From the NCBI RefSeq assembly GCF_047555085.1, contig NZ_CP180230.1, forward strand, positions 60,001 through 92,000: 32,000 nt of DNA. Direction: 5' to 3'. Each line of letters starts with the position of its first letter. Position 1 is the first letter of the stretch. The stretch comes from Candidatus Saccharimonadota bacterium. GTDB lineage: Archaea; Nanohalarchaeota; Nanosalinia; Nanosalinales; Nanosalinaceae. This document shows, one piece after another, positions 7,333 through 32,000 of the stretch. Position numbers and translations under genes: made by a program. The notes under the pieces were generated by a model that saw only the letters and a program-made list of their open reading frames with translations, did not search any database and was not told the DNA's origin.

Positions 7333-7360
7333 AAGGCCTCAACATTTCTCTTATCTCATT

Positions 7361-7376
7361 TTCCCTTTTTCTGTAA
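7361..7376 (+). terminator. Putative oligo-T archaeal terminator after the lipoprotein operon
   Basis: T-rich tract ttcccttttt ctgtaa, 30-45 nt after the stop at 7330-7332. It contains the 10-mer TTTTCTGTAA, which also follows the gene ending at 19575. Confidence 0.45.
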
Positions 7377-7456
7377 AAATTTATCCGGACTATATCTGAT
7401 TTTTCAAGGCCTTATCTGAAAAACATATTTAATTGTTGTTATTTAACGTTGGTAAC

Positions 7457-7900
7457 ATGACAGATGGGGAGGAGGAATCTGAATTTTCAAGACGTGGATT
7501 TGCATATGTTGTAGGAGGCACTCTGGCAGCTACAGCAGCCTCTGGATGGTATCTGAAAGATATTCTTAACGGTATTTTTGAGAAAAGAGATGAGCCGGGA
7601 AACTTTGGGGAATCAACTTCAACTCCGCCGGGAACGCCGGGAGACAGGCCTTCCGATCAAACTTATGAGGATTGGGAGGACGCTATCCCTGCAGGATGCA
7701 GCCTGCCCCAGAGCTACGAGACCGCAATTGAGGAAGAGATCGATAAGTACGACGAGCTTCAGAGTGAAAACCTGACAGAATACGTCAATACTGGAAGAGT
7801 CAAATTCGAGAAAGATGGAACTGAAGGGTACATGATAATCGACGAAGATGATGATGGCCAATACGATCATGGCCGTTCTATTCCAGGAATGTGTAAGTAG
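7457..7900 (+). CDS. Small acidic secreted protein with a twin-arginine (Tat) signal
   Basis: Track ORF 7433..7900 starts at a TTG. I prefer the ATG at 7457, which gives MTDGEEESEFSRRGFAYVVGGTLAATAASG. The SRRGF motif followed by a hydrophobic stretch matches the Tat consensus S/T-R-R-x-F. The mature part is acidic with 2 Cys. Its TAG stop directly abuts the next gene. Confidence 0.65.
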   Translation: MTDGEEESEFSRRGFAYVVGGTLAATAASGWYLKDILNGIFEKRDEPGNFGESTSTPPGTPGDRPSDQTYEDWEDAIPAGCSLPQSYETAIEEEIDKYDELQSENLTEYVNTGRVKFEKDGTEGYMIIDEDDDGQYDHGRSIPGMCK

Positions 7901-7909
7901 GTGGGTGAA

Positions 7910-18357: not shown

Positions 18358-18594
18358 TCAATTTTCCTCGAACTTTCCCAGTCTCTCCAGAGTTTCAAGG
18401 ATTCCCCAGGCATAGATAACTGACTCCCAGGCCCGGATAAAATCTTCTTCATCAAGGAAATGATACGTATCTTTCCTGTAGGCCTCAACGTTTTCCATCT
18501 GTTCGACATCTTTATCGAGGCCTTCTACTCTGTCCTCAAGTCTTTCAAGCCATTTCTCTGTCTCTTCCTTGAGTTTTTCCTGAGTCCTATCCAT
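18358..18594 (-). CDS. Small helical protein, probably of the archaeal DUF357 family
   Basis: 78-aa acidic helical ORF. The segment AYRKDTYHFLDEEDFIRAWESVIYAWGILETLERLG fits my recollection of the DUF357 Y-A-x-G-x-L-D/E signature. It is convergent with dphB, with a 10-nt spacer. Confidence 0.5.
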   Translation of the reverse strand: MDRTQEKLKEETEKWLERLEDRVEGLDKDVEQMENVEAYRKDTYHFLDEEDFIRAWESVIYAWGILETLERLGKFEEN

Positions 18595-18669: not shown

Positions 18670-19575
18670 ATGGGAATATTCGGACCGGCTCCAAGTATAA
18701 TTGATGCAGGCGCAGCAGCTGTAGAAGGAATGAGGAGACTTCAGGACTATGTAGAGGGTGATGATTATGACTCTCTGACTGATGAAGAGCTCCAGCAGTG
18801 GGCTGACGACAACGGATTTTCTTACAGGAAAGAAGATGGAGTAACTCATCTGGAGCCGGAGACTGAGGAAGCCCAGCAGTTGGTCGCAGAGACTGATATC
18901 GATTCTGATGAAGAGTATCCAATCGAGAGAAGGATGCTTGAGTCAGGTCCTGAAATTCTTGCACTTGAATCGGAAAATAATGCTGAAAGTGGATCTACTA
19001 TGACAGATGACTACGAATTTGAACTGAATCAGACGGAGGCCCTGCACGCAGGGTCTATGGAACACTACGAAAACCAGGATGAATACGGCGATCTAGAACA
19101 GGGAGAACTGGAAGCTCTAGGACTTGCTCTTTACGTTGAAGAGGCCGTCAGCGACGAGTCAGATCTTGTCGATAGAGACGACATGATCAACTACATCATG
19201 GAGAATGACGTCGATGGAGAGGCCTTTGTAGAGTTCAAGAAAGGTCTTGCAAGCGATTACGACGACTTCGCTGAAACTATGAATGCTTTCATCGGCCACA
19301 GAGATGAGCTTATCGAAGAGCTTGGAGCAACAGGAACGCTTTACCAGGCTCTTCAGGCAGAGACAAGAGCTGAAAGAGATAGCGCTGAAGATGCAATGAG
19401 CTCCGTAAAGTCGGCAGCTTCAGACGCCAAGACAAGCAGCGAATGGCTTGACAACGTAGCTGATCTTGATGGAGCAATTCAGGCTGAACAGGAATCTGCT
19501 CAGAGGAAGCAGGAGCTTGAAGAAGGTCTTCAGGAGATCAGAGAAGAAATAGGTCTTGAAGAAGACGACGAATAA
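18670..19575 (+). CDS. Hyper-acidic soluble protein (301 aa), paralogue A, unknown function
   Basis: No TM or signal peptide. The C-terminal ~150 aa align with the next gene (LEALGLALYVEE..., LASDYDDFAETMNAFIGHRDELIEEL, LYQALQAE, SSEWLDNV). Confidence 0.75.
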   Translation: MGIFGPAPSIIDAGAAAVEGMRRLQDYVEGDDYDSLTDEELQQWADDNGFSYRKEDGVTHLEPETEEAQQLVAETDIDSDEEYPIERRMLESGPEILALESENNAESGSTMTDDYEFELNQTEALHAGSMEHYENQDEYGDLEQGELEALGLALYVEEAVSDESDLVDRDDMINYIMENDVDGEAFVEFKKGLASDYDDFAETMNAFIGHRDELIEELGATGTLYQALQAETRAERDSAEDAMSSVKSAASDAKTSSEWLDNVADLDGAIQAEQESAQRKQELEEGLQEIREEIGLEEDDE

Positions 19576-19585
19576 TCTCTCACTT

Positions 19586-19620
19586 ATTTTTCCTTCTTTT
19601 TTTCTTTTCCTTTTCTGTAA
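19586..19620 (+). terminator. Putative oligo-T terminator
   Basis: atttttccttctttttttcttttccttttctgtaa lies immediately after the stop at 19573-19575. It ends with the same TTTTCTGTAA 10-mer seen at 7367-7376. Confidence 0.55.
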
Positions 19621-19678
19621 GTATTCCGGTATAACAAAAATGAATAAAAGTGTTGTCATTCTATAGTAACATACTGAG

Positions 19679-20512
19679 GTGTCTGTGATTTCAACTGGTG
19701 CTGGACTTAACAGGAGAGAACTGCGGGAGACTGCAGTAGACCACGTACTGGATAATATGGATCAGTACGATGATCCTGTTGACTATGAAGCTCTAGGACT
19801 GGCTCTATACACTGAAGACGTTATCACGGGCGCCAGAGATGATTTAGATAGTTCGGAGATTACAGACTATCTTGCTGAAAACAATGTAGATGATCAGAGA
19901 TTCATAGGCTACAAGGCAAGCCTTGCCAGCGACTATGATGAATTTGTCGGATTTATGGAAGACTTTATCGGCATGCGGGACGAGTTAGTGGATGATATCG
20001 AGTCTGAGGGAGTTTTCTACCAGGCGCTTTACGAAGAGGCCAAGAATGAAAGAAATAACGCTGAACAGGCACTGAACGATATTATAGGCCTGGTTTCCGA
20101 TGCAAGGGCAGAATCGTCATGGCTTGATAATATACCGGAAAGAGGCCCGGAACAGGATGATCCGGAAACAGATAATCCGGAGCCGGAAAGGCCTGGTTCT
20201 GGGCCAGGAACGCCAGGAGAGGATTCAGATAATTTCTCTACATGGTCCAACTACAACTTCGGGGAGCAGGTTATCTCCGGAGGCCTGAATACCTGGTCGA
20301 ACTATAACTTTGGGACACAGGTCGCAGGATTTGAGGGCGTAGAGGTAATTGAAGGAGAGCTTAACGAAGATATACTTGAGGAAGACTTCCCGTTATTTGA
20401 GGAACAGGAGCAAAGCTCTGAATCATGGATCTACAATCCACAGATCAGGGTCAGCCCGACTATAAATATTACAGCTGGCGGCGAGAGCTGGAGCTTTGAC
20501 CAGGCCTCTTGA
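19679..20512 (+). CDS. Hyper-acidic soluble protein (277 aa), paralogue B, with a PG-rich linker and a short internal repeat
   Basis: GTG start at 19679, or GTG at 19685. The shared domain reads YEALGLALYTED, LASDYDEFVGFMEDFIGMRDELVDDI, FYQALYEE, ESSWLDNI. The internal duplication reads FSTWSNYNFGEQV / LNTWSNYNFGTQV. Confidence 0.75.
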   Translation: MSVISTGAGLNRRELRETAVDHVLDNMDQYDDPVDYEALGLALYTEDVITGARDDLDSSEITDYLAENNVDDQRFIGYKASLASDYDEFVGFMEDFIGMRDELVDDIESEGVFYQALYEEAKNERNNAEQALNDIIGLVSDARAESSWLDNIPERGPEQDDPETDNPEPERPGSGPGTPGEDSDNFSTWSNYNFGEQVISGGLNTWSNYNFGTQVAGFEGVEVIEGELNEDILEEDFPLFEEQEQSSESWIYNPQIRVSPTINITAGGESWSFDQAS

Positions 20513-20537
20513 AAACAGTTCTATAGCCCTGAGAAGG

Positions 20538-20554
20538 GTTAACTTATAATTAAC
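20538..20554 (+). promoter_or_regulatory. Putative TATA box embedded in a 17-nt near-palindrome, upstream of a probably leaderless gene
   Basis: gttaacttataattaac has one symmetric mismatch pair. Its centre is about 28 nt upstream of the ATG at 20575. Confidence 0.45.
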
Positions 20555-20574
20555 TTTAAGATAAAACATACTTC

Positions 20575-22452
20575 ATGCAGCAGGCCTTACCTGAGGATCT
20601 ATGGTTTTTCATAATTGTAATGGCTCTGCTGATACTTGCGTACCTCTGGAATGACAGAGGGAGTTCAGGAGGAAAGAAGAAAAGAAAGAAGAGGAAAACA
20701 CCTGAACCAGAAGAGCCAGAGACGCCTGAAGAGCCGCCTGACATACGCATAGCGCGTCGAGGATCTACAACACCTGGAGAAGAATGCTGGATAAAGGCCT
20801 CTTTCACCACTGGAACTGGCGAAGTTCAGTCTCTAAAGGCTGAGATAAACGGTCAGGAAGTAGGGATCCGCGAGAGGCAGGGCAATGCGTTCATATCAAA
20901 TCCTGCAGAAGTACAGGAAGGAGAGAACAGGTTAAAGGCCTCGATAAAAACAGATGTAGCAACTAAGACAGATTCCACAACTTTCCCTGCAGGTGAGAGA
21001 GTTCCTGATGATGAGGAAGGCCCTACGCTACTGCTTGACTACAATATAGTTGATGAACGTAATGGGCATGTCCAGATAGAGGCCGATGCCCGCAGAGGTT
21101 CGGCGCCTATAGTGCAGACAGCCATATCTCTTTCTACCAGAGACAGAACTGTCGGAGGAAATAGCGACAACAGTGACTACTGTGAATTTGAAGCTGAAGG
21201 TTTACCGCCTGGAAATTATGTTATAGATGCTGTAACACAGGACGAAAACAGTTTAACAAATGAAAAAACAGAAACATTTACGCTTGAAGATACTTCCGGG
21301 CCGGGACCAGGAGAGCCTACAGGCCCTGAAGGTGGTGGAGGATATTCTGGCATACCTAACGTCTTTAATCCTCAGATAGAGGCCTCGCCTGAGATAAATC
21401 TTGATGTTCCTGAGGAGGCGATTCATATCTTGCAGGATATAGTTGGAGAGGTTGACAGAGAGGCGCCGGGAGATGTCTCTCAGGAAGTTGGGATGGAGGG
21501 TTATCAGATATTGATGGCTATGCACATGCTTCAAAATGATCTTGATGGCGATGATAATCGCCAGATTGTTGAGGAGCTGGAAAGGATAAGAGAAAGTCTT
21601 GGTCAGGGCCAGGTGTCGGAGAATGATCTTGAAAGTTCTCTCAGAGCTGTTCTGCATGATGTGTTTGGACAGGATCTTCAGGATGTGCTTGAGGGCCTGG
21701 AAGTAAACGGTTTCGATGAGGAAGCTATCGTTCAGGCTATAAATGAAAATAACGTGGATCTGGAGCCTCTGGCCGCCCGTCTTTCTGATATTGAACAAGC
21801 TGTTGGACAGCTGGAGAGTCAGGGTACAGACCTGACGGATATTGAGCAAAGGCTTGATTCTATAGAGGAGGCGGTGGAGGAGTCAGGAGGTTTTGACAGG
21901 ACAGCTGTCAATCCGATGGCGATGACTAGAGATCCTGAGGAGTCAGGATCCGGAGGTAATAAAAACGAGGAAAGTGTAAAAGATCGTATGGCAAAAGCCA
22001 ATACTCTGCAACACATTGATCAAGCTGAAAGTGCGTTAGAAAATCTGAAAGAGGAACAGAGCCAGATTGAGGATGATCTACAGGATGCTCACGCAACTCT
22101 GCAAGATCTACAGAATAACCTCCATGATGCTATAAAACACGAAAACCATCTTGACAACGTTCTAGATGATAATAATCTGAAGAATCCTAACAAGATCAAA
22201 GAAAATTACCAGTCTGAAATCCAGCAGATCAAGGAGGATATCAAGGCTGCTATCAAAGATTACAGAAGATTCGAAGGCGATGTAGAAGAGATCAGCAGAC
22301 TAGTTGATGAAGAAGAAGATGGAACTAATCAGCTTCAGAGACTTGACGAGGCCGTCGGAACTTCTATTCAGCACGTAGAACAGCTTGCTGAAAAAGTTAA
22401 AGAAGCCTACGGAGTTGAACTGGATACAAACCCACAGGTAAACTTTAACTAA
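20575..22452 (+). CDS. N-terminally membrane-anchored protein (625 aa) with a poly-Lys/Arg patch, a Pro/Glu linker, beta-sandwich-like domains and a long acidic coiled coil
   Basis: One TM (LWFFIIVMALLILAYLW) is followed by GGKKKRKKRKTPEPEEPETPEEPP. By the positive-inside rule the bulk of the protein is cytoplasmic. The C-terminal ~250 aa have heptad-like, Q/E/D/L-rich sequence (LENLKEEQSQIEDDLQDAHATLQDLQNNLHDAIKHE). Confidence 0.8.
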   Translation: MQQALPEDLWFFIIVMALLILAYLWNDRGSSGGKKKRKKRKTPEPEEPETPEEPPDIRIARRGSTTPGEECWIKASFTTGTGEVQSLKAEINGQEVGIRERQGNAFISNPAEVQEGENRLKASIKTDVATKTDSTTFPAGERVPDDEEGPTLLLDYNIVDERNGHVQIEADARRGSAPIVQTAISLSTRDRTVGGNSDNSDYCEFEAEGLPPGNYVIDAVTQDENSLTNEKTETFTLEDTSGPGPGEPTGPEGGGGYSGIPNVFNPQIEASPEINLDVPEEAIHILQDIVGEVDREAPGDVSQEVGMEGYQILMAMHMLQNDLDGDDNRQIVEELERIRESLGQGQVSENDLESSLRAVLHDVFGQDLQDVLEGLEVNGFDEEAIVQAINENNVDLEPLAARLSDIEQAVGQLESQGTDLTDIEQRLDSIEEAVEESGGFDRTAVNPMAMTRDPEESGSGGNKNEESVKDRMAKANTLQHIDQAESALENLKEEQSQIEDDLQDAHATLQDLQNNLHDAIKHENHLDNVLDDNNLKNPNKIKENYQSEIQQIKEDIKAAIKDYRRFEGDVEEISRLVDEEEDGTNQLQRLDEAVGTSIQHVEQLAEKVKEAYGVELDTNPQVNFN

Positions 22453-22504
22453 AATCATCAATTTCTGTGGAGAGAGCGATCTCTCCCAGTCATTTCCATC
22501 TCAG

Positions 22505-22517
22505 TTTTATTAATTAA
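22505..22517 (+). promoter_or_regulatory. Putative TATA box for a leaderless 95-aa gene
   Basis: ttttattaattaa is centred about 25 nt upstream of the ATG at 22536. Confidence 0.45.
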
Positions 22518-22535
22518 GACTTCTAATTTCACACT

Positions 22536-22823
22536 ATGAGAGATCCCTGGAAGTACCTGGCCTTCCCTATTGCCGCAATCATAGGATATCTGGCATCTCT
22601 AGGTCTTACAAGTGTAGTCGCAAACAGTACAGGCCTAGCAGAAGGAGTTGCCAAATTTGCTGTCATAGGAGGTACAGGCCTCGTTGCAGGGTTCATGATT
22701 GATGAAGTCATCCCGGCTTACATCGAGAAAATCCGTGAAGGCGGATCCGGAGGCGATATGGGCGGTGACTTCGGCGGTGGCGGCGGAGATGACGACTTCG
22801 GCGGTGACATGGACTTTGGATAG
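22536..22823 (+). CDS. Small two-TM membrane protein (95 aa) with a Gly/Asp/Phe tail
   Basis: Hydrophobic segments YLAFPIAAIIGYLASLGLTSVV and FAVIGGTGLVAGFMI. The tail reads GGSGGDMGGDFGGGGGDDDFGGDMDFG. Confidence 0.65.
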   Translation: MRDPWKYLAFPIAAIIGYLASLGLTSVVANSTGLAEGVAKFAVIGGTGLVAGFMIDEVIPAYIEKIREGGSGGDMGGDFGGGGGDDDFGGDMDFG

Positions 22824-23265
22824 AAAGAAACTTTTTCTAGGCCTCTTACTCGTATTTTTTGTTTCAGCGGCAGCCGCAGCTACGTATGGCTACAGCGGCT
22901 ATAATTCGTATAACGGGCTTGCATTGATTAATCTTGACGATCCGCAGCAGGTCCTAACGGCTTTTGTGGCTCCATTCCTACTCATTACATTGATTTTCCA
23001 GAGAGGATACTACAAGGCACTTTCGTTTACTCTAGCTGATGAGCCCACGAATATGTGGCCTTCTCCTGATGAGGATGATGAACGGGTCAGGATAAAGAAG
23101 TACTCGATGATAATGTCTCTGGCAACTGCGGGTATGATTGTTCCTACGCCCTGGTTCAATCTGATCCGCAACTGGGTTGCAGCTCTATTTGGAATGATAG
23201 GATTCCTGTTCTTCGGAGCTATATTTGCTGCATTTGTCTACGTTCTGTGGAAGGCCTTCTCCTAG
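22804..23265 (+). CDS. Polytopic membrane protein (about 154 aa)
   Basis: Track ORF 22699..23265 overlaps the previous gene by 125 nt. GTG at 22804 (or TTG at 22816) gives VTWTLDRKKLFLGLLLVFFVSAAAAA..., a typical signal or anchor sequence, and reduces the overlap to 20 nt. There are 3-4 hydrophobic segments. Confidence 0.6.
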   Translation: MTWTLDRKKLFLGLLLVFFVSAAAAATYGYSGYNSYNGLALINLDDPQQVLTAFVAPFLLITLIFQRGYYKALSFTLADEPTNMWPSPDEDDERVRIKKYSMIMSLATAGMIVPTPWFNLIRNWVAALFGMIGFLFFGAIFAAFVYVLWKAFS

Positions 23266-23284
23266 AAGGGCTTAATGCATTTAA

Positions 23285-24898
23285 ATGAGGAGACTAAACA
23301 ATTTACGTATGAAAAGGAAGATTCTGGCTCTTTCCGGATTTCTAACATCAATAACAGCCTCTGCATCAGCACAGGTTACAGGAGGGTCAGGTGAAATTAC
23401 TTCCGTATTCGCCATACTAGGCCAGGTACTGGGGATAGATATAGGCAATCCCTACAGCGCACTGGCACTTCTAGCTACTCTAGGTATAATGTCTCTTTCT
23501 ACCTACATCGTTCTGAAAGAGGCCTTCAAGAAAATGGATATGCTTGATACGGTACTACCGGGAAGCGGCCGTAACGGAGGAGGCAGAAATATTCTGGCAC
23601 TTCTATCCGTTCTTATAACATTAACAATATTCGGTACAGGAGCTGCAGCAGGCATAATTCAGGGATTCCAGGCAATATTCCTTCTTGGATTCGTATTCAT
23701 GATGATAGGAGGAGGAGTATTCATCATGATCGGTGGATCAGGAATGATTCTAGGAGGAGGGTCCAAGGCAATGGGTAAGTTCTCCAAAGATGCAGCTGAA
23801 GGGATATCTGAAGGTATGGAAGCCGTAGGAGAGATAGATGATATACTGGGAACAGCAGAAAGAGAGGCACAGGACGGTGCGGAAAACAATGATGAAGAAG
23901 AGGAAGAAGAGGCCGCTGAAAGGATAGAGAGGGCGCTTGAACTGATGAATGAAGTACTAGTCAACACTGCAGGAGATCTTGACTCAAAGAGAAATGAAGT
24001 AACAGATGCTGTAGGGAAAGTAGAAGAGGCTATAGGCCTGGAAGAAGACGAGTTTGAACAGCTTGGATACATCGACCAGCGCTTCAAGAGAGCAAATATC
24101 TTCCTTCATGAGGCCTCACAGGTAGTAGAATCTTCAGGTCCTGGAGGATCAGATCTGTTGAATGGAGAAGGAGCATTTAATCTTACTGATGACTGGTCTG
24201 ACCAGATCAGCATTGGAGCTTTACAGGGAATAGAAGGATTACATAAGAACAGTCCTGGTATGTCTGCTTCGGATCTTTACGGCCTTGCAGGAGTCAGAGA
24301 GGATTTCGAGAAGATCAATCAGTCCCTGGATATGATGACTGAGGAGCTCAGTGAAGAAGAGGGCGATATGGCAGAGGCCTTCCAGGAGCTCGTTGATGCA
24401 GTTGAGGCTGCTGTCGGGTATCATGAGATTCTTCAGGATCTTGGAGAATTGCTTGATGAAGCAGAGAGGGACGATGAGATGCTTGAACAGCTTGCTCAGT
24501 CCAGAGATTGGCGCAGACTTTACAATGAAGCTGATCACGAGGAAGATGAGGAGAGGCAGCTTGAGAACAGGAAGGCCGAGATTACAGGAGAGGAAGATGC
24601 TTTGAGAAGCGAGCTTAACTCTGCTGTAAATCTTCTGAAGAAGCATTTGCAGGAGGATGACAGGATTATCCAGGAAATAAGAAATGAGCTCGAAAACGAT
24701 GAAAGAAGTATTGAAGACGCTCTGTCAACGCTTTCAGGCGAGCTTGAAGGCACAGGCTACGAGTCTGCTCTTGGAGAGCTTGATAATATGCTGGCATCTA
24801 TAGAGGCCAGAATCGAGCGCATAGAAGATGAGGATATAAATGAAGAACAGAGGGAGAGAGAAGTTATCCAGCAGGCTCAGCAACATCTGGAAGGATAG
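23285..24898 (+). CDS. Polytopic membrane protein (537 aa) with a long acidic C-terminal coiled-coil domain
   Basis: The signal-like N-terminus is MKRKILALSGFLTSITASASA/QV if the ATG at 23309 is used. Four or five Gly-rich TM segments follow (FQAIFLLGFVFMMIGGGVFIMIGGSGMILGGG). After them come ~370 aa rich in E/D/L with heptad character (EDALRSELNSAVNLLKKHLQEDDRIIQEIRNELENDERSIEDAL). Confidence 0.8.
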   Translation: MRRLNNLRMKRKILALSGFLTSITASASAQVTGGSGEITSVFAILGQVLGIDIGNPYSALALLATLGIMSLSTYIVLKEAFKKMDMLDTVLPGSGRNGGGRNILALLSVLITLTIFGTGAAAGIIQGFQAIFLLGFVFMMIGGGVFIMIGGSGMILGGGSKAMGKFSKDAAEGISEGMEAVGEIDDILGTAEREAQDGAENNDEEEEEEAAERIERALELMNEVLVNTAGDLDSKRNEVTDAVGKVEEAIGLEEDEFEQLGYIDQRFKRANIFLHEASQVVESSGPGGSDLLNGEGAFNLTDDWSDQISIGALQGIEGLHKNSPGMSASDLYGLAGVREDFEKINQSLDMMTEELSEEEGDMAEAFQELVDAVEAAVGYHEILQDLGELLDEAERDDEMLEQLAQSRDWRRLYNEADHEEDEERQLENRKAEITGEEDALRSELNSAVNLLKKHLQEDDRIIQEIRNELENDERSIEDALSTLSGELEGTGYESALGELDNMLASIEARIERIEDEDINEEQREREVIQQAQQHLEG

Positions 24899-24912
24899 GC
24901 CTGATTTTCTTC

Positions 24913-24924
24913 TAATTATTTAAA
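24913..24924 (+). promoter_or_regulatory. Putative TATA-box promoter element (TAATTATTTAAA) for the 754-aa gene
   Basis: The 12-mer taattatttaaa is centred about 29 nt upstream of the ATG at 24947. An identical 12-mer recurs at 27312-27323. Confidence 0.5.
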
Positions 24925-24946
24925 CCGGGAGAGGAAAGTATGTACT

Positions 24947-27211
24947 ATGGCGGATTTCGGTGGAGTTGATGGCTCGGCTTTTGATGAGGCCTATGAAATC
25001 CTGAGTCAGGAAAATCAGGAGACTATAGAGGCCTATCGTCATAATTCGCCTACACATGAACAGATTAACCATATTGAAGAAGTGCTGAATATTCTACGTT
25101 CTCTTAGAGGAGACATCAGTCAGGGCCTTGAAGATCAGTCTAGAGAGATGGATGATGCTATAAGCAATCTTGAACAGGTGACAGGCCTTGATCGAGAGGA
25201 AGATGATCTTGCCCATCAGCTTGAATCACAGTGGGAGGATTTTGAGAGAAAAGTCACGGAGGAGTTTGAAAGAGCACAGGCCCAGAAAACTTCACGTACT
25301 CAGAAGATGCGGGAAGGTATTGGGTCACGATTTTCGGGAGTTTTCGGCGATGATGAAGAGGATGATTCCAATTCAGCGGAGGATTCCGGAAGAGCACAAT
25401 CCATAGTATATTATCCTGATCAACTGGAGGCCCAGTTAGCTACTATGGAACAGAAGTTCCTGAATCCTCTTTTACGTAACGAGGAGCAGAAAACAGAGCA
25501 GGAGCAGGCCCTGAAAAATCTTACACAGGTACTGGAGACTTCAGTTGAACTCCATCAACAGGCTAACAAGTACAAAATGATTCTTCTGAAGGCCAAAAAC
25601 GATGTACAACTACAGGAGCAGCTTGCAGAACAGTCCCATATTGACTGGTTCAATCAGGAAGTTATGGAGGCAGGTTCTCAGGAACAACGGCTTGAGAGAC
25701 AGGTAGAAGAAGTTATGAACGCTGAAAAAGCGTTAGTCGATAGATTTGAAGAGGCCTCTAATTTGATTCAGGAGATACTGAATATCGATCAGGATATAAT
25801 GGATACTATCTCGGCAAATTCCGGTGAGAAAAAAGGCCGTGCACAGAAAGCTATAGGATCCTTGACTTCCGGAGAAAATACCGTAGTAGATATGCTAGAG
25901 TTCATTAACAGTGTACACTCTGAGAACGATTATTCGATTGTTGCTCAGAGGATAAATGACGGTATCAGACCTAAAATAGCACAGATTCAGAGAATGGAGG
26001 ATACGGATATACGTCGGGAGCAGAAGCTCGCTGAAGAAGTCGAGGACTACGTTGCAGAGCACAGAAGACTTTTCGAGCAGCAGCAAAATGAAATTGAACA
26101 GGAGGAAAGAAATCTTACACCGGAAGGCCCTGTAGATGATGCTAGGAACGGTGCACCGCCAGGGACGCGTGAGTTTATACAGAAGATAGAGGAGTTGAGG
26201 GATCTCATGAATCAGGGTATTCTTGAGGATCTAAGAAATGCTGAACAGAATTACAGAAGAGTGTACAGGATTGATCAGGACGAAGTCGAGAACGTAAAAG
26301 ATTTCGAAGGCAGAGCTCAGAAGCTTTCAGATGATCTTGGGAGGATAGAAGAGGATTTCAGGGATAAAACTCCGTTTGAAAACGCGTATCAGGCCCAGGA
26401 TGGCTCAAAGCGCCTGAAGATGGAGATGGAGAAGCTGATGAACGGAGAGGATCCTTTCAGTGCAGGCCTCAGGCCTGTAGCTAATCTTATTGAACAGCTT
26501 CAGGCAGATCTACAGAAAATATATTCTGATGAAAGTGAGGAAAGAAATCACTTCCAGTCTGCACATGAGTCTCTTCAGCAGGAAGTTGTAAGGATTCGAG
26601 AGGTTATCGCCGCAGTAGATGAACTTGAATCAATGGTTGAAGAGTTCCGGGATCCAGATCATCCACGCAACAGTGTGAACGGAGAATCACATCCATACAG
26701 AGCATACCACGATGCCTTCCTGGCGGCCAGCAGAACATTGTTCGATGGAAATGATAGGGAGGTCCAGCAGCGTTTACACAATTTGATCGGTAGTATTGTA
26801 GAATGGATAAACAATCTTGAACAGGAAATAGAAAGGCTAGATGGAGTAATGAGCGAGGTAATCAATGAAGAGGATATCGAGATAAATGCCTTCAAGAATG
26901 AAATCGAAGTCCTGCAGAGAATGCTTGAGATGCTTGAGGAAACATTCCAGGGAGATATTAACGAGCCTATACCCAGTCCTGTAAGCCAGAAAATTGATCA
27001 AATAGACAAGGCCTTGAGAAAGATAGAGGAGAAACTGGAAGATCTGGAGTCAAGAAAAGAAGGAGAGGAAACAGAGTTCGAAAACGAGGAAGATTTCTTT
27101 GGTGATCTGGGCGACGACATGGATACTGCTTCAGATGAGGCAAATACTGTATTCGAGGAGGATGAATCAATGTTCGACGAAGAATTTGACGACGATTTCG
27201 GAGAATTCTAG
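24947..27211 (+). CDS. Soluble hyper-acidic coiled-coil protein (754 aa), unknown function
   Basis: No TM or signal peptide. E/D/Q/L-rich heptad-like sequence runs throughout. The N-terminus is MADFGGVDG and the C-terminus is EDFFGDLGDDMD...FDEEFDDDFGEF. Confidence 0.8.
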   Translation: MADFGGVDGSAFDEAYEILSQENQETIEAYRHNSPTHEQINHIEEVLNILRSLRGDISQGLEDQSREMDDAISNLEQVTGLDREEDDLAHQLESQWEDFERKVTEEFERAQAQKTSRTQKMREGIGSRFSGVFGDDEEDDSNSAEDSGRAQSIVYYPDQLEAQLATMEQKFLNPLLRNEEQKTEQEQALKNLTQVLETSVELHQQANKYKMILLKAKNDVQLQEQLAEQSHIDWFNQEVMEAGSQEQRLERQVEEVMNAEKALVDRFEEASNLIQEILNIDQDIMDTISANSGEKKGRAQKAIGSLTSGENTVVDMLEFINSVHSENDYSIVAQRINDGIRPKIAQIQRMEDTDIRREQKLAEEVEDYVAEHRRLFEQQQNEIEQEERNLTPEGPVDDARNGAPPGTREFIQKIEELRDLMNQGILEDLRNAEQNYRRVYRIDQDEVENVKDFEGRAQKLSDDLGRIEEDFRDKTPFENAYQAQDGSKRLKMEMEKLMNGEDPFSAGLRPVANLIEQLQADLQKIYSDESEERNHFQSAHESLQQEVVRIREVIAAVDELESMVEEFRDPDHPRNSVNGESHPYRAYHDAFLAASRTLFDGNDREVQQRLHNLIGSIVEWINNLEQEIERLDGVMSEVINEEDIEINAFKNEIEVLQRMLEMLEETFQGDINEPIPSPVSQKIDQIDKALRKIEEKLEDLESRKEGEETEFENEEDFFGDLGDDMDTASDEANTVFEEDESMFDEEFDDDFGEF

Positions 27212-27311
27212 TTCCTGTATACAGGCCTCAATACTTTCCGTTTCGATTAAAGCTACGTTCTTTACGCAGTATAGCCATTCAGAGGCCTCTAGTTGCTTTC
27301 TATTACTGGTT

Positions 27312-27323
27312 TAATTATTTAAA
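27312..27323 (+). promoter_or_regulatory. Putative TATA-box promoter element (TAATTATTTAAA) for the small-membrane-protein operon
   Basis: This 12-mer is identical to the one at 24913-24924 and lies 41 nt upstream of the ATG at 27364. It is followed by aggagg and agaggt, which could act as SD-like sites. Confidence 0.45.
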
Positions 27324-27363
27324 GGAGGAAAGGCAAATTCTAGGTATAAAGAGGTAATAAAGA

Positions 27364-27507
27364 ATGGCGACAATGCAAACTGTGATGACTCAGGTCATGA
27401 ATAATCCGACTGTATTTATTGCAGGCCTGGCGATTGGATATATTGGAGCTAAACTCCAGAGAAAGCTCGGCCGTAACAGCGGCGGCTTTGGCGGAGGTGG
27501 CTTCTGA
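27364..27507 (+). CDS. Mini membrane protein (47 aa) that is not in the supplied ORF track
   Basis: My translation is MATMQTVMTQVMNNPTVFIAGLAIGYIGAKLQRKLGRNSGGFGGGGF. It has one hydrophobic helix and a basic patch followed by a Gly/Phe tail. Its TGA at 27505-27507 overlaps the ATG at 27507 of the next gene (tgATG-type coupling). Confidence 0.5.
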   Translation: MATMQTVMTQVMNNPTVFIAGLAIGYIGAKLQRKLGRNSGGFGGGGF

Positions 27508-27767
27508 TGGCAGATAAGAAATTCCACAGATATCTATACGATATCGAAAACTGGATTGACGAAGTTGTCATCGCAGTTCTTTCATTCGGAGCGATCTTTG
27601 TCGCAACGTATGTAATGTTCATAGCACCTGGCCAGATCAGTTTCCTGGATCTAGGGAACACTCTTGAGCCATGGATCACGATGCTCGCACTGATGATAAT
27701 CGGAAGAGAGCTTTGGCTGATCAAGAATGCGATGTACCAGAAATGGGACATCGAAGAAGGTGAATAA
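27507..27767 (+). CDS. Small two-TM membrane protein (86 aa)
   Basis: Hydrophobic segments VVIAVLSFGAIFVATYVMFIA and WITMLALMIIGRELWLI. The gene is translationally coupled to its upstream neighbour and lies 4 nt from its downstream neighbour. Confidence 0.65.
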   Translation: MADKKFHRYLYDIENWIDEVVIAVLSFGAIFVATYVMFIAPGQISFLDLGNTLEPWITMLALMIIGRELWLIKNAMYQKWDIEEGE

Positions 27768-27771
27768 CTGA

Positions 27772-28392
27772 ATGGTGCAGTCATTTGGAGGCCTAATGGA
27801 GACACTTACAGGGATAGACTTCTTTACAGGCCTTCTTCCATTCGTTATTACTTATACTGTATTTTTCTTCATACTGAGATATCTAGCTTCAGAAGTACTT
27901 TTCGATGGCTGGGATGACAACAAGCCAGATCAGTTCGCAGCTATTCTATCGATAGCGTTTGCCTTCTTCACGGCTAACTTCATACTGAATCAGCCGTGGG
28001 CAGCAGCATTCTTCTCACAGTACCTGGGAAGACTTACAGTGATCATAGTAGGCCTCTTAGGATTACTGGCCTTGCTAGGATTCGTCGGAATAGATCTTGA
28101 CAGCAGCAAGACCGGTGTAGGATGGGTGATGGCGTTACTTGTCATTGCAGCCTTTGCAGTATCCGGTGGAGTCAGTTCAATCCTGCCGGTGTCAAGCAGG
28201 AATGCTGCTATAGCATACCTGTCCAATGGCCTCACATACATGATTGACTCAGGCCTGATCTTCCTAGTACTGATCGCAGGACTGCTCTATTACACAATGA
28301 GAGATCCAAGCAGTGGCAGCAGCGAAAGAATGCAGTGGTTCACACCTTTCGGAGGAGTTCAGAAAGGTGGCGACGATGAAGATGGGGGGTAG
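27772..28392 (+). CDS. Polytopic membrane protein (206 aa), paralogue of the next gene
   Basis: About 5 TM segments. It aligns by eye with the 162-aa protein (GIDFFTGLLPFVITYTVFF vs MGFRLFLPWLLVLAITYGLL; LSIAFAFFTANFILNQ vs IALAMAFFTILGVNQ; IIVGLLGLLALLGFVGIDL vs FGLFGLLGLMILIAVTGYDM). It ends in an acidic Gly tail (GGDDEDGG). Confidence 0.75.
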   Translation: MVQSFGGLMETLTGIDFFTGLLPFVITYTVFFFILRYLASEVLFDGWDDNKPDQFAAILSIAFAFFTANFILNQPWAAAFFSQYLGRLTVIIVGLLGLLALLGFVGIDLDSSKTGVGWVMALLVIAAFAVSGGVSSILPVSSRNAAIAYLSNGLTYMIDSGLIFLVLIAGLLYYTMRDPSSGSSERMQWFTPFGGVQKGGDDEDGG

Positions 28393-28404
28393 GTGATTCA
28401 TTAG

Positions 28405-28893
28405 ATGGGAGCCTTTGAGATAATAATCCAGACAATGACAGAGATGGGCTTCCGTCTATTCCTACCTTGGCTTCTTGTCCTAGCTATAACCTACGGTCTT
28501 CTGGAACAGTACGAGATAATAAGCAGTGAGACACAGGTAAACGGCTCCATCGCTCTGGCGATGGCTTTCTTCACGATTCTTGGAGTTAACCAGTACGCTC
28601 CAGCAGGCATATTCACTAACTTTGCGGCTGCGATGGCTTTCGGCCTCTTTGGGCTTCTGGGATTGATGATTCTTATCGCTGTAACAGGCTATGATATGTC
28701 GCAGTTTGCAGAGAAAGGTACGCCACGCTACTTTGCATATACTATCTTCATAGTATCATTCATCACGATCGTAGTAACATATGTGGATATAGGGACAGTA
28801 GTAGGAGAGGGCATGAACGCCTTCAATGATGTAATCCTGCCAATACTGATCCTGATCTTCTTCATACTGCTTGTAAGAGAAACCACAAAGTAG
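28405..28893 (+). CDS. Polytopic membrane protein (162 aa), paralogue of the previous gene
   Basis: About 5 hydrophobic segments. See the alignment words listed for 27772..28392. Confidence 0.75.
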   Translation: MGAFEIIIQTMTEMGFRLFLPWLLVLAITYGLLEQYEIISSETQVNGSIALAMAFFTILGVNQYAPAGIFTNFAAAMAFGLFGLLGLMILIAVTGYDMSQFAEKGTPRYFAYTIFIVSFITIVVTYVDIGTVVGEGMNAFNDVILPILILIFFILLVRETTK

Positions 28894-28981
28894 AGGCCTT
28901 ATTTTCTAGGCATATCAGTAGTATTGAAAGAAGCAGTCAAGTTTAGAAAAAAGAGAGATATAAAGAAAAGAGGCCGTTTTT

Positions 28982-29830
28982 CTATTCCGACCTGAATGCA
29001 TCCATGTCGATATCATCGACTTCCTGATTCGACACGGAGCTATCTGTTTCAATACCCTGTTCTCTTTTTATCTCCTGTACAAGGCCTGTCAGGTCACGGA
29101 TGTTGTCTACAAGGGATGGAAGAATCTGCTGGAAGGCCTTCTCCAGGCCTCCGATCCGTGATTCATAGGAATCAATATGGTCTTCAACTTCGTCCATCTT
29201 CTGTACGAATTCTTTCTGATCTTCATCGTCTCTTACTTCCAGATCATGTACACGACTGTCAAGTTCTTCCAGTTTCTCCTCTATCATATCGAGTTCAGAG
29301 TACACGTTCTGGAACTCTGTCTCCACTTTCTGGAAGTTCTCTGCAATTATTGTTTCGATAAGCTCCTCGATCTGAGGGTCTACTGTATTTTCACCGGTCT
29401 GTAGCTGTGGCTGATTCTGCTGATTCCCGCTACTTTGCTGTGTCTGTTGCTGCATCTGCTGGTTCTGCCCTTGGTTCTGATTTTGGTCTTCCTGGTTGTA
29501 GCCTTCGTCCATAGGACTTACAGCCTCGTCGTCTCCTTGGTATGGGCTCATTGGTTCTGGTCCTCCGCTGTTTGAATCTCCGGTTGCCGAAGAGGTCACC
29601 ACGTTGTTGATTGCTCTGTTGATGTCATCCGATGAGTACTGTCCCTGCAGCTCGTTTCTGATCTGATCTTCATCGTATCCCTGCTTGAACATTCCCTTTA
29701 CAGTTCTCTTCAGGTTTCCGCCTCCAACTTGGCTGATACTTTGCTGCTGTTGGGACTGAGAACTAGAGTTGCCGGACTGACTGTTGCTGTCATCATCGTC
29801 TTTTAATCGTCCGAAAAGCTTGAAATCCAT
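28982..29830 (-). CDS. Q/N-rich low-complexity protein (282 aa) with a C-terminal acidic coiled coil
   Basis: The N-terminus is MDFKLFGRLKDDDDSNSQSGNSSSQSQQQQS. A short helical module follows (KQGYDEDQIRNELQGQYSSDDINRAINNV). The Q/N tract reads QEDQNQNQGQNQQMQQQTQQSSGNQQNQPQLQ. The coiled coil reads ELDMIEEKLEELDSRVHDLEV...IGGLEKAFQQILPSLVDNIRDL. Confidence 0.75.
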   Translation of the reverse strand: MDFKLFGRLKDDDDSNSQSGNSSSQSQQQQSISQVGGGNLKRTVKGMFKQGYDEDQIRNELQGQYSSDDINRAINNVVTSSATGDSNSGGPEPMSPYQGDDEAVSPMDEGYNQEDQNQNQGQNQQMQQQTQQSSGNQQNQPQLQTGENTVDPQIEELIETIIAENFQKVETEFQNVYSELDMIEEKLEELDSRVHDLEVRDDEDQKEFVQKMDEVEDHIDSYESRIGGLEKAFQQILPSLVDNIRDLTGLVQEIKREQGIETDSSVSNQEVDDIDMDAFRSE

Positions 29831-29872
29831 GGTTTAACCTCTTAGTACTTGAAAATCAATTTGTGATTGCTC

Positions 29873-30325
29873 CTATTTAACTTCACTGTCTGTATCGGCG
29901 TTTTCACGCTTCTGCTCTCTCAGTTTCTTCTCCACAAGTGACTCAACTTCGTCCTTTGAAACGTAGTCTTCCTCGATCATCTCCCGCACCTCTTTCTCAG
30001 TCATGAAAGATGAATTTATAGGGTTCATGAGGTTCATGTAGTTCTCTATCTCATCCAGTTCCTGAGAAGTCACGAACTTTCTTTTCTCCCTGTTAATGTT
30101 CTTTATATCAACTTCAAGGTTTGCCACACGATCGCTTAACTCATTGACGTCATTTTCCAGCTCCTGTATATCCTCGCTGTTGGACTCCGTCTTGTTCATA
30201 ATGGTGTCATCAAGAGTATTAACTCTCGCAGAGAGGTTCCTGATCTTCTCTTCCAGGTCTCGGACTCTTCGATTGAAGTCGTTAACCCGGTCAACTACCT
30301 GGTTTATGATATTCTGCTGTGGCAT
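29873..30325 (-). CDS. Small coiled-coil protein (150 aa), possibly FlaC/ArlC-like
   Basis: Heptad-rich sequence (VRDLEEKIRNLSARVNTLDD, IQELENDVNELSDRVANLEVDIKNI) is followed by ENYMNLMNPINSSF. This loosely recalls the coiled coil plus YE..s..NPF ending of the archaeal FlaC domain. The gene is divergent from the ATPase gene (43-nt spacer) and upstream of the Q/N-rich gene. Confidence 0.7.
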   Translation of the reverse strand: MPQQNIINQVVDRVNDFNRRVRDLEEKIRNLSARVNTLDDTIMNKTESNSEDIQELENDVNELSDRVANLEVDIKNINREKRKFVTSQELDEIENYMNLMNPINSSFMTEKEVREMIEEDYVSKDEVESLVEKKLREQKRENADTDSEVK

Positions 30326-30368
30326 CCCTACCTAACCTTTTACCAATGCTCAAATAACAATGTTAGGT

Positions 30369-32000
30369 ATGGACGTAAAAAACAAGGATGTATTCGACTA
30401 CGAATACGACGACGAGACAGGAACAGTCGAAATCAACATGCTTGGATCGATCTATGGGGCCTCTATAGAGGATTATCCTGAAGTCATGTCCCGTGTAATC
30501 AACATTCTACAGGAGATCCCGGAAGCAGGAAACGTAGTACTATCCGAATCAAGAGAATATGAGTATGAAGAAGATCAGATAAGGCTTCTAAGAGAGATAG
30601 CGAACGCAGTAAGAGATATTTCAGCACAGGGATATCTTTCACAGGATATAAAGAGAGATAAATGCAGCCAGCTGTACGATCAGCATCTACCGGAAGTACA
30701 GAGAATAGTATTTGACAAGTTAAGGAGAGATCCTGTAGGGGCCTACGTCAAGCTTATTAGAAAGGAAAGACACTTGAGACAGGATAAAGACCATGCGTAT
30801 CCTCAGCAACAGCGCTGTATCAAGTATTTTATACAGGATGTGATTAAACCTGTCAAAAACACTCTGGAACAGTGTGAAATGATTCAGAGAGCACAGGACT
30901 ATCTTACAGGATATCACGTTGGCGATAGAGAGATCTACAGGGAATTTTTCCACCCTCTTGTAAGGCCTAACTTTATGCTTACAAAGTACATGTCTCTTCC
31001 TCCTGAAAGAGGAGAGGAGAAAACTAGATATACTGTAAGAGACGATATCGAAGTTTCTGTGTATGAAGTCCCTGATCAAACAAGGCCTGTATATCACGTT
31101 GATCCCCCGGAGTTCAATCTTCCTGAGGAGAAATACAAACTCTTGGATGCAGCTAGACGTTTCATGGCCTCTCACAAGCCGGATGAAGGAGAGTTCGCAA
31201 GGCCTGAAAGAATGAATGAAGTCTTCGAGAACATCGGCAGGGACATGCTGAGAGATATTGCGAATCAGATGGGCCTCAAACTTTCACTTGACGAACTCGA
31301 CAAGCTTACAGATATACTTAACAGATATACTTCAGGCCTGGGAGTACTAGAGATTCTTTTGACTGATCCAAAAGTACAGGACGTCTACATTAACTCTCCG
31401 ATCGGAGATGCTCCGATTTACATTACGCATCAGGACTTTGAGGACTGCGAGACAAATCTTATTCCAACAAAAGAGGAGGCCGAATCCTGGGCCACACGCT
31501 TCAGGATCCAGTCTGGAAGGCCTCTTGACGAAGCAAATCCTGTTCTCGATACAGAGACAGAGGTACAGGGAGGCCGTGCCCGTGTAGCAGTAATACAGGA
31601 AAATCTCTCTCCTTCAGGCCTTGCATTTGCTTTAAGGCGCCACAGGTCCCGTATATGGACGCTTCCACTGTTTATACAGAATGGAACTATAAATTCTATC
31701 GGGGCAGCAGTGCTTTCCTTCCTTGTGGATGGTAATCGTTCGCATCTATTCGCAGGGACGCGTGGAGCAGGAAAGACGTCTCTTCTATCAGCTGCTATGC
31801 TGGAAATCATGAAAAATCATCGTATAGTTACTGTAGAAGATACTCTGGAGCTTCCTATACCTCAGATGAAGGATCTGGGATACAATATAGAAAGGATGAA
31901 ATCTCGCTCTGTAATTACGCAGGTTGAAAATGAAATGAGTGCGGATAATGCTATTCGTACCTCTCTCCGTCTTGGAGACTCTGCGCTTGTTATTGGAGAG
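30369..32000 (+). CDS. Type II/IV secretion-family ATPase (archaeal FlaI/ArlI-PilB / GspE / VirB11 superfamily), 3'-truncated by the window end
   Basis: This ORF is not in the track because it runs off the end. I translated 544 codons from the ATG at 30369 without meeting a stop. Family blocks include RYTSGLGVLEILLTDPKVQDVYIN, EEAESWATRFRIQSGRPLDEANPVLD, GGRARVAVIQENLSPSGLAFALRRH, Walker A GTRGAGKTS (31755-31781), VTVEDTLEL and LRLGDSALVIGE. The N-terminal domain is long, about 330 aa. Confidence 0.88.
   Translation, partial: MDVKNKDVFDYEYDDETGTVEINMLGSIYGASIEDYPEVMSRVINILQEIPEAGNVVLSESREYEYEEDQIRLLREIANAVRDISAQGYLSQDIKRDKCSQLYDQHLPEVQRIVFDKLRRDPVGAYVKLIRKERHLRQDKDHAYPQQQRCIKYFIQDVIKPVKNTLEQCEMIQRAQDYLTGYHVGDREIYREFFHPLVRPNFMLTKYMSLPPERGEEKTRYTVRDDIEVSVYEVPDQTRPVYHVDPPEFNLPEEKYKLLDAARRFMASHKPDEGEFARPERMNEVFENIGRDMLRDIANQMGLKLSLDELDKLTDILNRYTSGLGVLEILLTDPKVQDVYINSPIGDAPIYITHQDFEDCETNLIPTKEEAESWATRFRIQSGRPLDEANPVLDTETEVQGGRARVAVIQENLSPSGLAFALRRHRSRIWTLPLFIQNGTINSIGAAVLSFLVDGNRSHLFAGTRGAGKTSLLSAAMLEIMKNHRIVTVEDTLELPIPQMKDLGYNIERMKSRSVITQVENEMSADNAIRTSLRLGDSALVIGE

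Follow-up and report, generated by a model that had tools for sequence, protein, structure and literature searches.

Candidate accessory genes beside the secretion ATPase of a probable type IV pilus-like locus in a nanohaloarchaeon

Nanohaloarchaeota and other DPANN archaea need physical contact with their hosts, and pilus-like filaments are the main candidates for that contact, but their filament machinery has so far been annotated only as an ATPase, a platform, and "hypothetical proteins." A 32,000-nucleotide (nt) stretch of nanohaloarchaeal DNA (contig NZ_CP180230.1, positions 60,001 to 92,000; here called the window) carries thirteen consecutive open reading frames (ORFs A to M; 18670-30325) beside the truncated gene of a secretion ATPase (N) (Table 1). 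Which of these ORFs belong with the ATPase, and what does the ATPase drive? The first-pass annotation of the window treated all thirteen as one coherent new set encoding a candidate undescribed ATPase-driven envelope apparatus. All thirteen open frames are present at the coordinates given, and conserved accessory genes linked to the ATPase are indeed among them; the remainder of that claim is not supported, as A, B, C, and G were found in few lineages, D, E, F, H, and I belong to one clade, and the filament operon had already been reported. The reading favored here, with somewhat better than even confidence, is that A to N make up the upstream half of a nanohaloarchaeal locus for a type IV pilus-like filament and that these genes form layers of different age. 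Resolving most of the thirteen-gene apparatus into such layers guards against its overinterpretation.

The ATPase and its downstream genes

The ATPase belongs to the FlaI/GspE/CpaF class. The 544 residues encoded within the window are 100% identical to the first part of a 751-amino-acid (aa) protein of Candidatus Nanosalina sp. VS9-1 named "ATPase, T2SS/T4P/T4SS family," and the truncated ORF scores 38 bits with Pfam T2SSE (cut-off, 24.9). Its best matches in the PDB are 2OAP (E = 9e-27), FlaI 4II7 (4.5e-21), and CpaF (7e-18), all confined to residues ~290 to 700; the closest solved relative, afGspE (2OAP), is non-archaellar. The NCBIfam equivalog model for FlaI (NF058587) gives 141.6 bits, far below its cut-off of 550. 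An extra N-terminal domain of ~300 aa is cysteine-rich in non-halophilic orthologues; its structural model has a predicted local distance difference test (pLDDT) score of 69, and Foldseek found no fold match for it in the PDB (best E = 0.18). Orthologues are 75 to 98% identical across the Nanohaloarchaeota. In loci L028, L031, L040 to L043, L045, and L047 the orthologous ORFs are 1,250 to 1,940 aa long, and for most of these the protein match was reported for residues 1 to 493 only, which suggests that an intein, or more than one, is inserted just behind the Walker A region.

Past nt 32000, two relatives stood in for VS9-1: a locus of the same genus (L002; ATPase 93% identical) and the chromosome of Nanohalobium constans (L001; CP040089.1; 79%). 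In both, a polytopic protein of ~710 aa is encoded directly after the ATPase. The 712-aa ORF of L002 matches Pfam T2SSF (28.3 versus a cut-off of 25.2), and a platform gene likewise lies directly downstream of the ATPase in L054, L060, L062, and L064. Behind the platform of L001 and L002 follow about six to ten small ORFs with class III-like N-termini (MKG/LASIV..., MRNKG/AIATL..., MKRKG/LSQIL...). A simple pattern scan of all loci for such N-termini (K or R, then G/hydrophobic) called 117 downstream on the ATPase strand versus 30 upstream on either strand, and none among A to M. Because the platform and the class III-like genes follow in these relatives, the ATPase gene appears to be the first of an archaeal type IV pilus-like operon. 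The first-pass annotation, which advised a search for a platform and pilins beyond the window, had itself seen no class III signal peptides; its observation stands for A to M, but the apparent lack of pilins is an edge effect, since the window ends at nt 32000, and relatives encode both a T2SSF platform and class III-like proteins.

None of the ten proteins encoded downstream in L002 matched the Pfam pilin, archaellin, FlaF, or FlaG families. The gene tables of L001, L054, L056, L059, L060, L062, and L064 contain no KaiC-like ArlH, ArlF/ArlG, or archaellin families, which may lie elsewhere in the genomes, and no prepilin peptidase (PibD/FlaK, Peptidase_A24) was found in the gene tables of the loci examined, which span the loci only.

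A filament operon is already known from the Nanohaloarchaeota (PMC7443923, PMC6642349). La Cono et al. reported filaments on Nanohalobium, described as archaella-like stalks, and termed the operon archaella-like or archaellar (PMC7443923). The proteome of “Ca. Nanohaloarchaeum antarcticus” was shown by Hamm et al. to include FlaI, FlaJ, and archaellin-like proteins, which they interpreted as pilus-like, and they considered the subunits present insufficient for an archaellum (PMC6642349). The ATPase-platform operon of “Ca. Nanohalobium constans” (L001) is orthologous to that of the window, with the same gene order, and is probably the operon described in PMC7443923. The available portions of both papers name the ATPase, the platform, filament genes, and "hypothetical proteins" and do not mention M, L, J/K, or D to I. 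The present tests agree with the pilus-like view of Hamm et al. rather than with an archaellum, because the FlaI equivalog score is low, afGspE is the closest solved relative, and no ArlH, ArlF/G, or archaellin families were found.

Conserved neighbors of the ATPase

Loci of the ATPase were scanned in one genome per species (52 loci, with flanks of up to 10 kb), and the families of the window were traced with iterated profiles built from its proteins. In every nanohaloarchaeal locus with enough flank, M, L, and J/K lie beside the orthologous ATPase. The order in the main clade, where enough upstream DNA is available, is D-E-F (1 to 3 copies)-H-I-J/K (at least 2 paralogues)-(L)(M)-ATPase; in L001 the orthologues of D to I, J/K, L, and M occupy 4778-9952. 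Four deeper branches (L021, L022, L045, and L053) keep J/K, L, and M only.

J/K, L, and M also accompany the ATPase in lineages outside the halophilic clade. Outgroup orthologues, which are 48 to 55% identical over their full length including the N-terminal domain, come from metagenome-assembled genomes with non-acidic proteomes, some of them labelled Aenigmatarchaeota. In five such loci (L034, L047, L051, L054, and L056) J/K, L, and M are the only families of the window that adjoin the ATPase, and the other neighbors are unrelated, e.g., ribosomal protein L15e, DNA ligase, and glycosyltransferases. Even the platform gene is not adjacent to the ATPase in L047, L051, and L056, yet K-L-M is kept. 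The contexts of five further representatives of the L family, down to the weakest one listed, were also examined, and four were informative, as the fifth (L063) is a nanohaloarchaeal contig that ends inside the ATPase. In L060/L061, L062, and L064, M-L is directly divergent from an orthologous ~750-aa ATPase with an adjacent platform, and in L059 it lies ~3 kb from the ATPase with three genes between; the ATPase of all four is a full-length orthologue (48 to 53% identity). Genes resembling J/K adjoin L in L062 and, weakly, in L064, and lie ~2 kb away in L059. In L064, membrane genes follow M-L on the same strand. Since M, L, and J/K stay with the ATPase even in outgroups whose neighbors otherwise differ, it is concluded that they probably represent a conserved accessory module of this ~750-aa ATPase family in Nanohaloarchaeota and distant DPANN archaea. 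The five genes D, E, F, H, and I seem to have been added within the main nanohaloarchaeal clade.

The N-terminal part of L is a three-helix domain, which a Q/P-rich linker connects to a highly conserved coiled coil (SRIGGLEKAFQQVLPSLVDNVRDL); the acidic tail (D-x-D-M-E-D-W) occurs in halophiles only and is present in most halophilic relatives. Of the 2,034 representatives that an exhaustive profile search with the coiled coil returned at E <= 1e-3, 744 reached E <= 1e-10, and nearly all of the set are 200 to 330 aa long with the domain at the C-terminus; their cluster names were uninformative. A word-indexed search with the same region returned 19 proteins, mostly fragments, and no haloarchaeal relatives. 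L scores 27.8 bits with Pfam FlaC_arch (PF05377), equal to the gathering score of 27.8, over profile positions 1 to 40 of 55, where coiled-coil composition bias is possible, and 25.1 bits with DUF7310 (PF23991), under the cut-off of 40. These are the most frequent Pfam matches of its relatives, at or below threshold: FlaC_arch matches 31/36 members of the close family and 42/130 of the broad family (both at E <= 0.01), and DUF7310 matches 30/36 and 57/130, respectively. The first-pass annotation had found no recognizable family in the set and had called its accessory proteins unlike FlaC-H/X. The former holds for A to K, which have no meaningful match in the profile libraries used (Pfam, NCBIfam, and PHROGs), but not for L, and the latter is too strong given the weak FlaC_arch matches among relatives of L. 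For the three-helix domain the best PDB sequence match is a designed three-helix miniprotein; the UBA-containing chain 2d9s also matches weakly, and 17/130 relatives match RecX_HTH1. In outgroup locus L034, a 92-aa ORF between M and the ATPase (3267-3545) pairs a membrane helix with a helical motif like that at the N-terminus of L (EMKEILKSYGFSG), which hints that the N-terminal domain of L can be membrane tethered.

M is present in 40 of 53 loci; these are all the loci with L apart from L045, in which the opposite applies. It was also found in L054, L056, L059, L060, L062, and L064. Its conserved N-terminal motif is RVNDFNRRxRDLEE; a coiled coil follows, and the C-terminal motif, NPxxSxFxTxxE, is kept across all lineages. 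Comparison of the M profile with the L coiled coil by hhalign gave 93% probability (E = 3.4e-7; 68 columns). The two coiled coils thus seem related at the profile level, which fits a heteromeric pair, with coiled-coil bias as a possible contributor.

The start codons of M (ending at 30325) and the ATPase (ATG at 30369) are separated by exactly 43 nt, and L and M lie on the minus strand, as the first-pass annotation had noted. Start-to-start spacing (~36 to 49 nt) and the two AT-rich boxes of the spacer are kept across 14 aligned main-clade loci (the window and 13 others), with each box ~26 to 33 nt from one of the two start codons; in L021 and L053 the spacer is different and longer. From this arrangement we infer that the boxes are putative back-to-back promoters of leaderless transcripts for M-L and the ATPase operon. 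The spacer of the window also holds an inverted repeat (ACCTAAC...GTTAGGT).

J and K share 29% identity over 62 aa (E = 0.003), and K matches both Nanohalobium paralogues. Members of this family have about five helices and an N-terminal LP(F/W)LL motif; they occur in 39 loci, often in two to five tandem copies, and in the outgroup loci L034, L047, L051, L054, L056, L059, L062, and, weakly, L064. None of 74 database matches carries a precomputed Pfam domain. An AF2 model of the family (pLDDT, 73) had no Foldseek match in the PDB (best E = 0.78; TM score below 0.21).

Proposed machine, rival readings, and known systems

In the mechanism proposed here, the hexameric ATPase would dock on the platform and polymerize pilin-like proteins, giving rise to the surface filaments that electron microscopy showed on Nanohalobium. 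M and L, distantly related coiled coils, would share a conserved back-to-back promoter region with the ATPase operon. At the base of the machine they may assemble into a hetero-oligomer in the cytoplasm that serves as scaffold or regulator; analogues would be ArlC/D/E or ArlX, which surround the archaellum motor, or the coiled-coil arCOG07564 protein encoded in halobacterial pilus loci. A cytoplasmic coiled-coil scaffold had been proposed in the first-pass annotation and is a reasonable reading for these two proteins. J/K could provide membrane attachment of the scaffold or an extension of the platform. More speculatively, D, E, H, I, and the membrane-anchored coiled coils of F would be additions to the basal structure specific to Nanohaloarchaeota, which F-type proteins, as cytoplasmic coiled coils, may enlarge. 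A tentative extension, possible but held with much less confidence than the pilus-like reading itself, is that M, L, and J/K are an unrecognized basal module (a cytoplasmic coiled-coil ring tethered by small five-helix membrane proteins) that marks a distinct, widespread class of DPANN type IV filament machines and that Nanohaloarchaeota enlarged it with D, E, H, I, and the membrane-anchored F/G coiled coils to an unusually large structure for attachment to haloarchaeal hosts.

Several observations weigh against this reading. The link of A to M to the ATPase is one of gene neighborhood. Within the phylum such neighborhood says little, because housekeeping genes (those for DUF357, diphthine synthase, and Trm5) show about the same degree of synteny as D to I; conserved order within Nanohaloarchaeota is therefore weak evidence on function. 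About ten outgroup loci (L025, L027, L029, L030, L033, L035 to L037, L048, and L052) have an ATPase orthologue without K, L, or M nearby, and therefore the K-L-M module is either not obligatory or encoded elsewhere in such genomes. In a rough neighbor-joining tree most of these loci fall in a separate branch of the ATPase and have a second platform gene instead. The N-terminal domain of the ATPase occurs in loci with and without K-L-M and so cannot, on present evidence alone, be its specific docking site. The FlaC_arch and DUF7310 matches of L are short coiled-coil matches at or below threshold, the profile match between M and L could reflect coiled-coil composition, and the models of J/K and the ATPase N-terminal domain yielded no structural relatives. 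Of the comparisons advised in the first-pass annotation, those of profiles and structures thus led to weak FlaC_arch/DUF7310 similarity for L and to no relatives for the two models, and that of synteny supported M, L, and J/K as far as distant DPANN archaea while leaving D to I at the level of housekeeping genes; A, B, C, and G were found in few lineages.

The equal synteny of housekeeping genes also favors a different explanation, in which D to K, and possibly A to C and G, are independent membrane or cytoskeletal complexes (for envelope maintenance or division, for example) that adjoin the ATPase through conserved gene order, and only M and L belong to it. Neither the deeper branches (L021, L022, L045, and L053) nor any outgroup has D, E, F, H, or I; D-F, G, and H-K, which lie on the strand opposite M-L, each seem to form a transcription unit of their own, preceded by AT-rich boxes; and the A-C junction holds toxin-antitoxin cassettes in Nanohalobium. 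As an account of the whole region this explanation is rather doubtful. It is viable for D, E, F, H, and I, but J/K still lie beside L, M, and the ATPase in outgroups where all other neighbors differ, and M-L and the membrane genes behind it share a strand in L064, which argues that J/K at least belong to the module.

A true archaellum, a rotary swimming organelle with L and M as divergent switch or scaffold proteins of the ArlC/D/E type, would account for the FlaC_arch score of L and the matches of its relatives, for the names "archaellum component FlaC" and "FlaI" that the Joint Genome Institute (JGI) gives to some homologues and to the ATPase, and for the archaellar terms of La Cono et al. 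It is nevertheless unlikely, given the FlaI equivalog score and the non-archaellar closest relative of the ATPase, the ten downstream proteins of L002 without archaellin, FlaF, or FlaG matches, the gene tables of seven loci without ArlH, and the insufficiency of subunits stated by Hamm et al. Far less probable still is a viral, plasmid, or mobile insertion with its own secretion ATPase, which might be suspected from acidic, fast-evolving ORFans, from inteins in some ATPase orthologues, and from weak PHROG matches of B (unknown function; E = 5e-4) and G (tape measure; E = 0.006). No PHROGs match of A to K falls below E = 5e-4 and none is significant; the position between Trm5/diphthine synthase and Alba/phosphoglycerate mutase is stable across genera; the ATPase is conserved throughout the phylum; and the closest plasmid match is a haloarchaeal ATPase that aligns in the core only (40 to 45% identity) and has no L or M neighbors. 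A viral assignment, which the first-pass annotation had named as a possible refutation, did not emerge, and on the PHROGs results, the chromosomal context, and the plasmid search a viral or mobile origin is effectively excluded.

Among known systems, the pilus-like locus proposed here most resembles subclade 4F of the archaeal pili, which has coiled-coil accessory proteins and N-terminally extended, cysteine-rich ATPases according to Makarova, Koonin, and Albers in 2016 (PMC4858521). Shared traits are the gene of a FlaI/GspE-class ATPase with a TadC/T2SSF-type platform gene and several genes for proteins with class III-like signals behind it, an extra N-terminal domain of the ATPase that is cysteine-rich in non-halophilic orthologues, and a cytoplasmic coiled-coil accessory encoded alongside; the likeness is one of gene content and traits, not of phylogenetic placement of the ATPase in 4F. 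The two divergent coiled-coil genes and the five-helix membrane family, in contrast, are unmentioned for that subclade (PMC4858521). As with ArlC/D/E (FlaC/D/E) and ArlX (FlaX), coiled-coil proteins thought to form a cytoplasmic ring or scaffold are encoded beside a FlaI-type ATPase, and L scores exactly at the gathering threshold of the FlaC_arch coiled coil; in contrast to ArlX, L and M have no membrane anchor, and the domain layout of L and the motifs of M are their own. The archaellum differs further in the ArlH, ArlF, ArlG, and archaellin signatures, which were not found here, and in the FlaI score of its ATPase. With the bacterial Tad/Flp pilus the locus shares an ATPase core that aligns to CpaF and a T2SSF-type platform, but no Tad secretin, TadZ, or other accessory genes were found, the envelope is archaeal, and the accessory proteins differ. 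The halobacterial coiled-coil family arCOG07564 is possibly the same as Pfam DUF7310, a guess on our part, and the DUF7310 match of L is below threshold (25 bits versus 40). In a test of this halobacterial link, a Haloterrigena plasmid pilus locus gave an ATPase core match only and neither L nor M.

In the literature searched, no description of an M-L-J/K module or of its breadth was found, and the K-L-M accessory module is apparently undescribed. An accessory trio with ~2,000 sequence-diverse relatives offers concrete targets in the few cultivated nanohaloarchaeon-host pairs and may reveal what scaffolds a minimal filament motor in archaea that does without ArlH and ArlX.

Clade-specific genes and other features of the window

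Table 1. Features of the proposed pilus-like locus within the window
Feature	Coordinates	Strand	Description	Basis or remark
A	18670..19575	+	Hyper-acidic soluble protein, 301 aa, paralogue of B	Composition, paralogy
B	19679..20512	+	Hyper-acidic soluble protein, 277 aa, paralogue of A	Composition, paralogy
C	20575..22452	+	625-aa protein, N-terminal hydrophobic helix then KKKRKKRK, C-terminal coiled coil	Hydropathy, heptad scan
D	22536..22823	+	95-aa membrane protein, two helices, Gly/Asp-rich tail	Main nanohaloarchaeal clade
E	22699..23265	+	Polytopic membrane protein	Listed TTG start, 125-nt overlap with D
F	23285..24898	+	537-aa protein, signal-like N-terminus, three to four Gly-rich helices, acidic coiled coil	Hydropathy, heptad scan
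G	24947..27211	+	754-aa soluble coiled-coil protein, weakly F-like	Heptad scan, F/G alignment
H	27364..27507	+	47-aa protein, one hydrophobic stretch, Gly-rich tail	Stretch below hydropathy cut-off used
I	27507..27767	+	86-aa membrane protein	Start overlaps H stop by 1 nt
J	27772..28392	+	206-aa membrane protein, ~five helices	J/K family, conserved core
K	28405..28893	+	162-aa paralogue of J, convergent with L	J/K 29% identity
L	28982..29830	-	282-aa predicted cytoplasmic coiled-coil protein, putative core ATPase partner	Alignment, Pfam, neighborhood
M	29873..30325	-	150-aa coiled-coil protein, upstream of L, divergent from ATPase	Alignment, locus profiles
Intergenic region	30326..30368	.	Divergent spacer, 43 nt	Two conserved AT-rich boxes, CTTTTATTTTA and GAATAATAATG
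N	30369..32000	+	FlaI/GspE/CpaF-class secretion ATPase, first 544/751 aa	T2SSE match; cut by window end

The small or polytopic membrane proteins number six (D, E, H, I, J, and K) rather than the seven first counted, and they are tightly coupled as described, with ends that overlap or almost abut (D and E overlap, as do H and I; gaps of 4 nt for I-J and 12 nt for J-K). D occurs in 23 of 53 loci, always upstream of E-F, and is absent in the outgroup lineages. E is present in 24 loci, and its alignment with the Nanohalobium homologue starts at residue 54; its true start may lie ~30 to 40 codons after the listed TTG. H, in 29 loci, always precedes I, which is found in 30 loci and is 87% identical in a metagenome relative. 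The F profile matched 42 ORFs in 27 loci, between E and H, with one to three copies per genome.

Three long coiled-coil proteins, two of them membrane anchored, had been proposed, and C, F, and G do contain heptad-like stretches well beyond those of shuffled controls (0 to 13 residues), with hydrophobic helices in C and F and none in G. The stretch of F comprises 110 residues, and its coiled coil is predicted to be cytoplasmic because the loops after helices 1 and 3 are lysine rich. G has 274 heptad-like residues and aligns with F at 22% identity over 342 aa (E = 0.007). C has a hydrophobic helix at residues 3 to 21 and 135 heptad-like residues in the stretch 475 to 612; its only profile matches are weak ones to SMC/Rad50 coiled coils.

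A and B, as proposed, are paralogous (41% identity over 147 aa; E = 2e-32) and hyper-acidic: both have an isoelectric point of 4.05, with 29% D+E and no hydrophobic helix in A and 24% D+E in B. A has no Pfam, NCBIfam, or PHROGs match, and the PHROG match of B is its only one. Both are absent from all 52 genome loci, where flanks reach 10 kb only, and a metagenome scan with A/B found two Nanosalina-like contigs only, which repeat the array g08...A-B-C-D-E-F-G-H-I-J-K-L. Identity to these contigs is 75% for A, 58% for B, 40% for C (over 288 aa), 51% for F, and 45% for G versus 81 to 90% for D, I, K, and L. C was found in L003, L057, and L058 only, all relatives of Nanosalina, with L003 its single occurrence among the 52 genome loci. 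ORFs resembling G occur only in L002, L005, L050, and L058, the same slot being taken elsewhere by a second F-like ORF; beyond relatives of Nanosalina they are confined to two loci labelled only Nanohaloarchaea or uncultured archaeon. The low identities compared with D, I, K, and L indicate fast evolution of A to C and G, which occur in few lineages, and a more speculative view is that A, B, C, and G are add-ons of few lineages at a variable junction; nothing here ties them to the machine.

The gene for DUF357 (window 18358-18594) is on the minus strand in Nanosalina and on the plus strand directly before D in other genera, and A-B-C (18670-22452) is inserted between the two genes. In Nanohalobium (L001, 1736-4751) the interval from diphthine synthase to DUF357 contains PIN/VapB and HEPN/nucleotidyltransferase cassettes (toxin-antitoxin). 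The A-C interval thus looks like a variable junction. B (C-terminus, 20420-20512) and C (~21400-21440) share a short module, NPQI(R/E)(V/A)SP(T/E)IN, and D, G, and L end in acidic-aromatic tails (DMDFG, DDDFGEF, and DIDMDAF); these elements may be short binding motifs.

The palindrome AGGCCT is the commonest hexamer of the 32-kb window, with 115 occurrences versus 8.0 +/- 2.6 expected. Its copies lie in each of the three codon phases as well as between genes, and several gene ends and intergenic regions of A to M contain it. Similar enrichment (2.5 to 3.4 per kb) is seen in same-genus loci and strain SG9 (L002, L057, L009, and L007) but not in L003, Nanohalobium, and several others (below 0.5 per kb); one idea is that the excess arises through methylation-linked repair drive. 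The promoter words proposed to be shared by the thirteen genes, if they contain AGGCCT, are no evidence of co-regulation, because the palindrome, though present at several gene ends, is ubiquitous in the window.

Scans of the whole window with Rfam and for tRNA genes gave no matches. Its upstream half is rich in surface proteins between 4456 and 16554. Three tandem ORFs with lipobox-like N-termini (4456-7332) are located there together with a secreted acidic protein of 1,737 aa (7901-13114) that matches CarboxypepD_reg and, weakly, F5/8-type-C, a 521-aa protein similar to this giant one, and an Ig-like CARDB/FixG_C protein (13203-14954). The ORF at 7433-7900 carries a twin-arginine-type signal, SRRGFAYVVGG.

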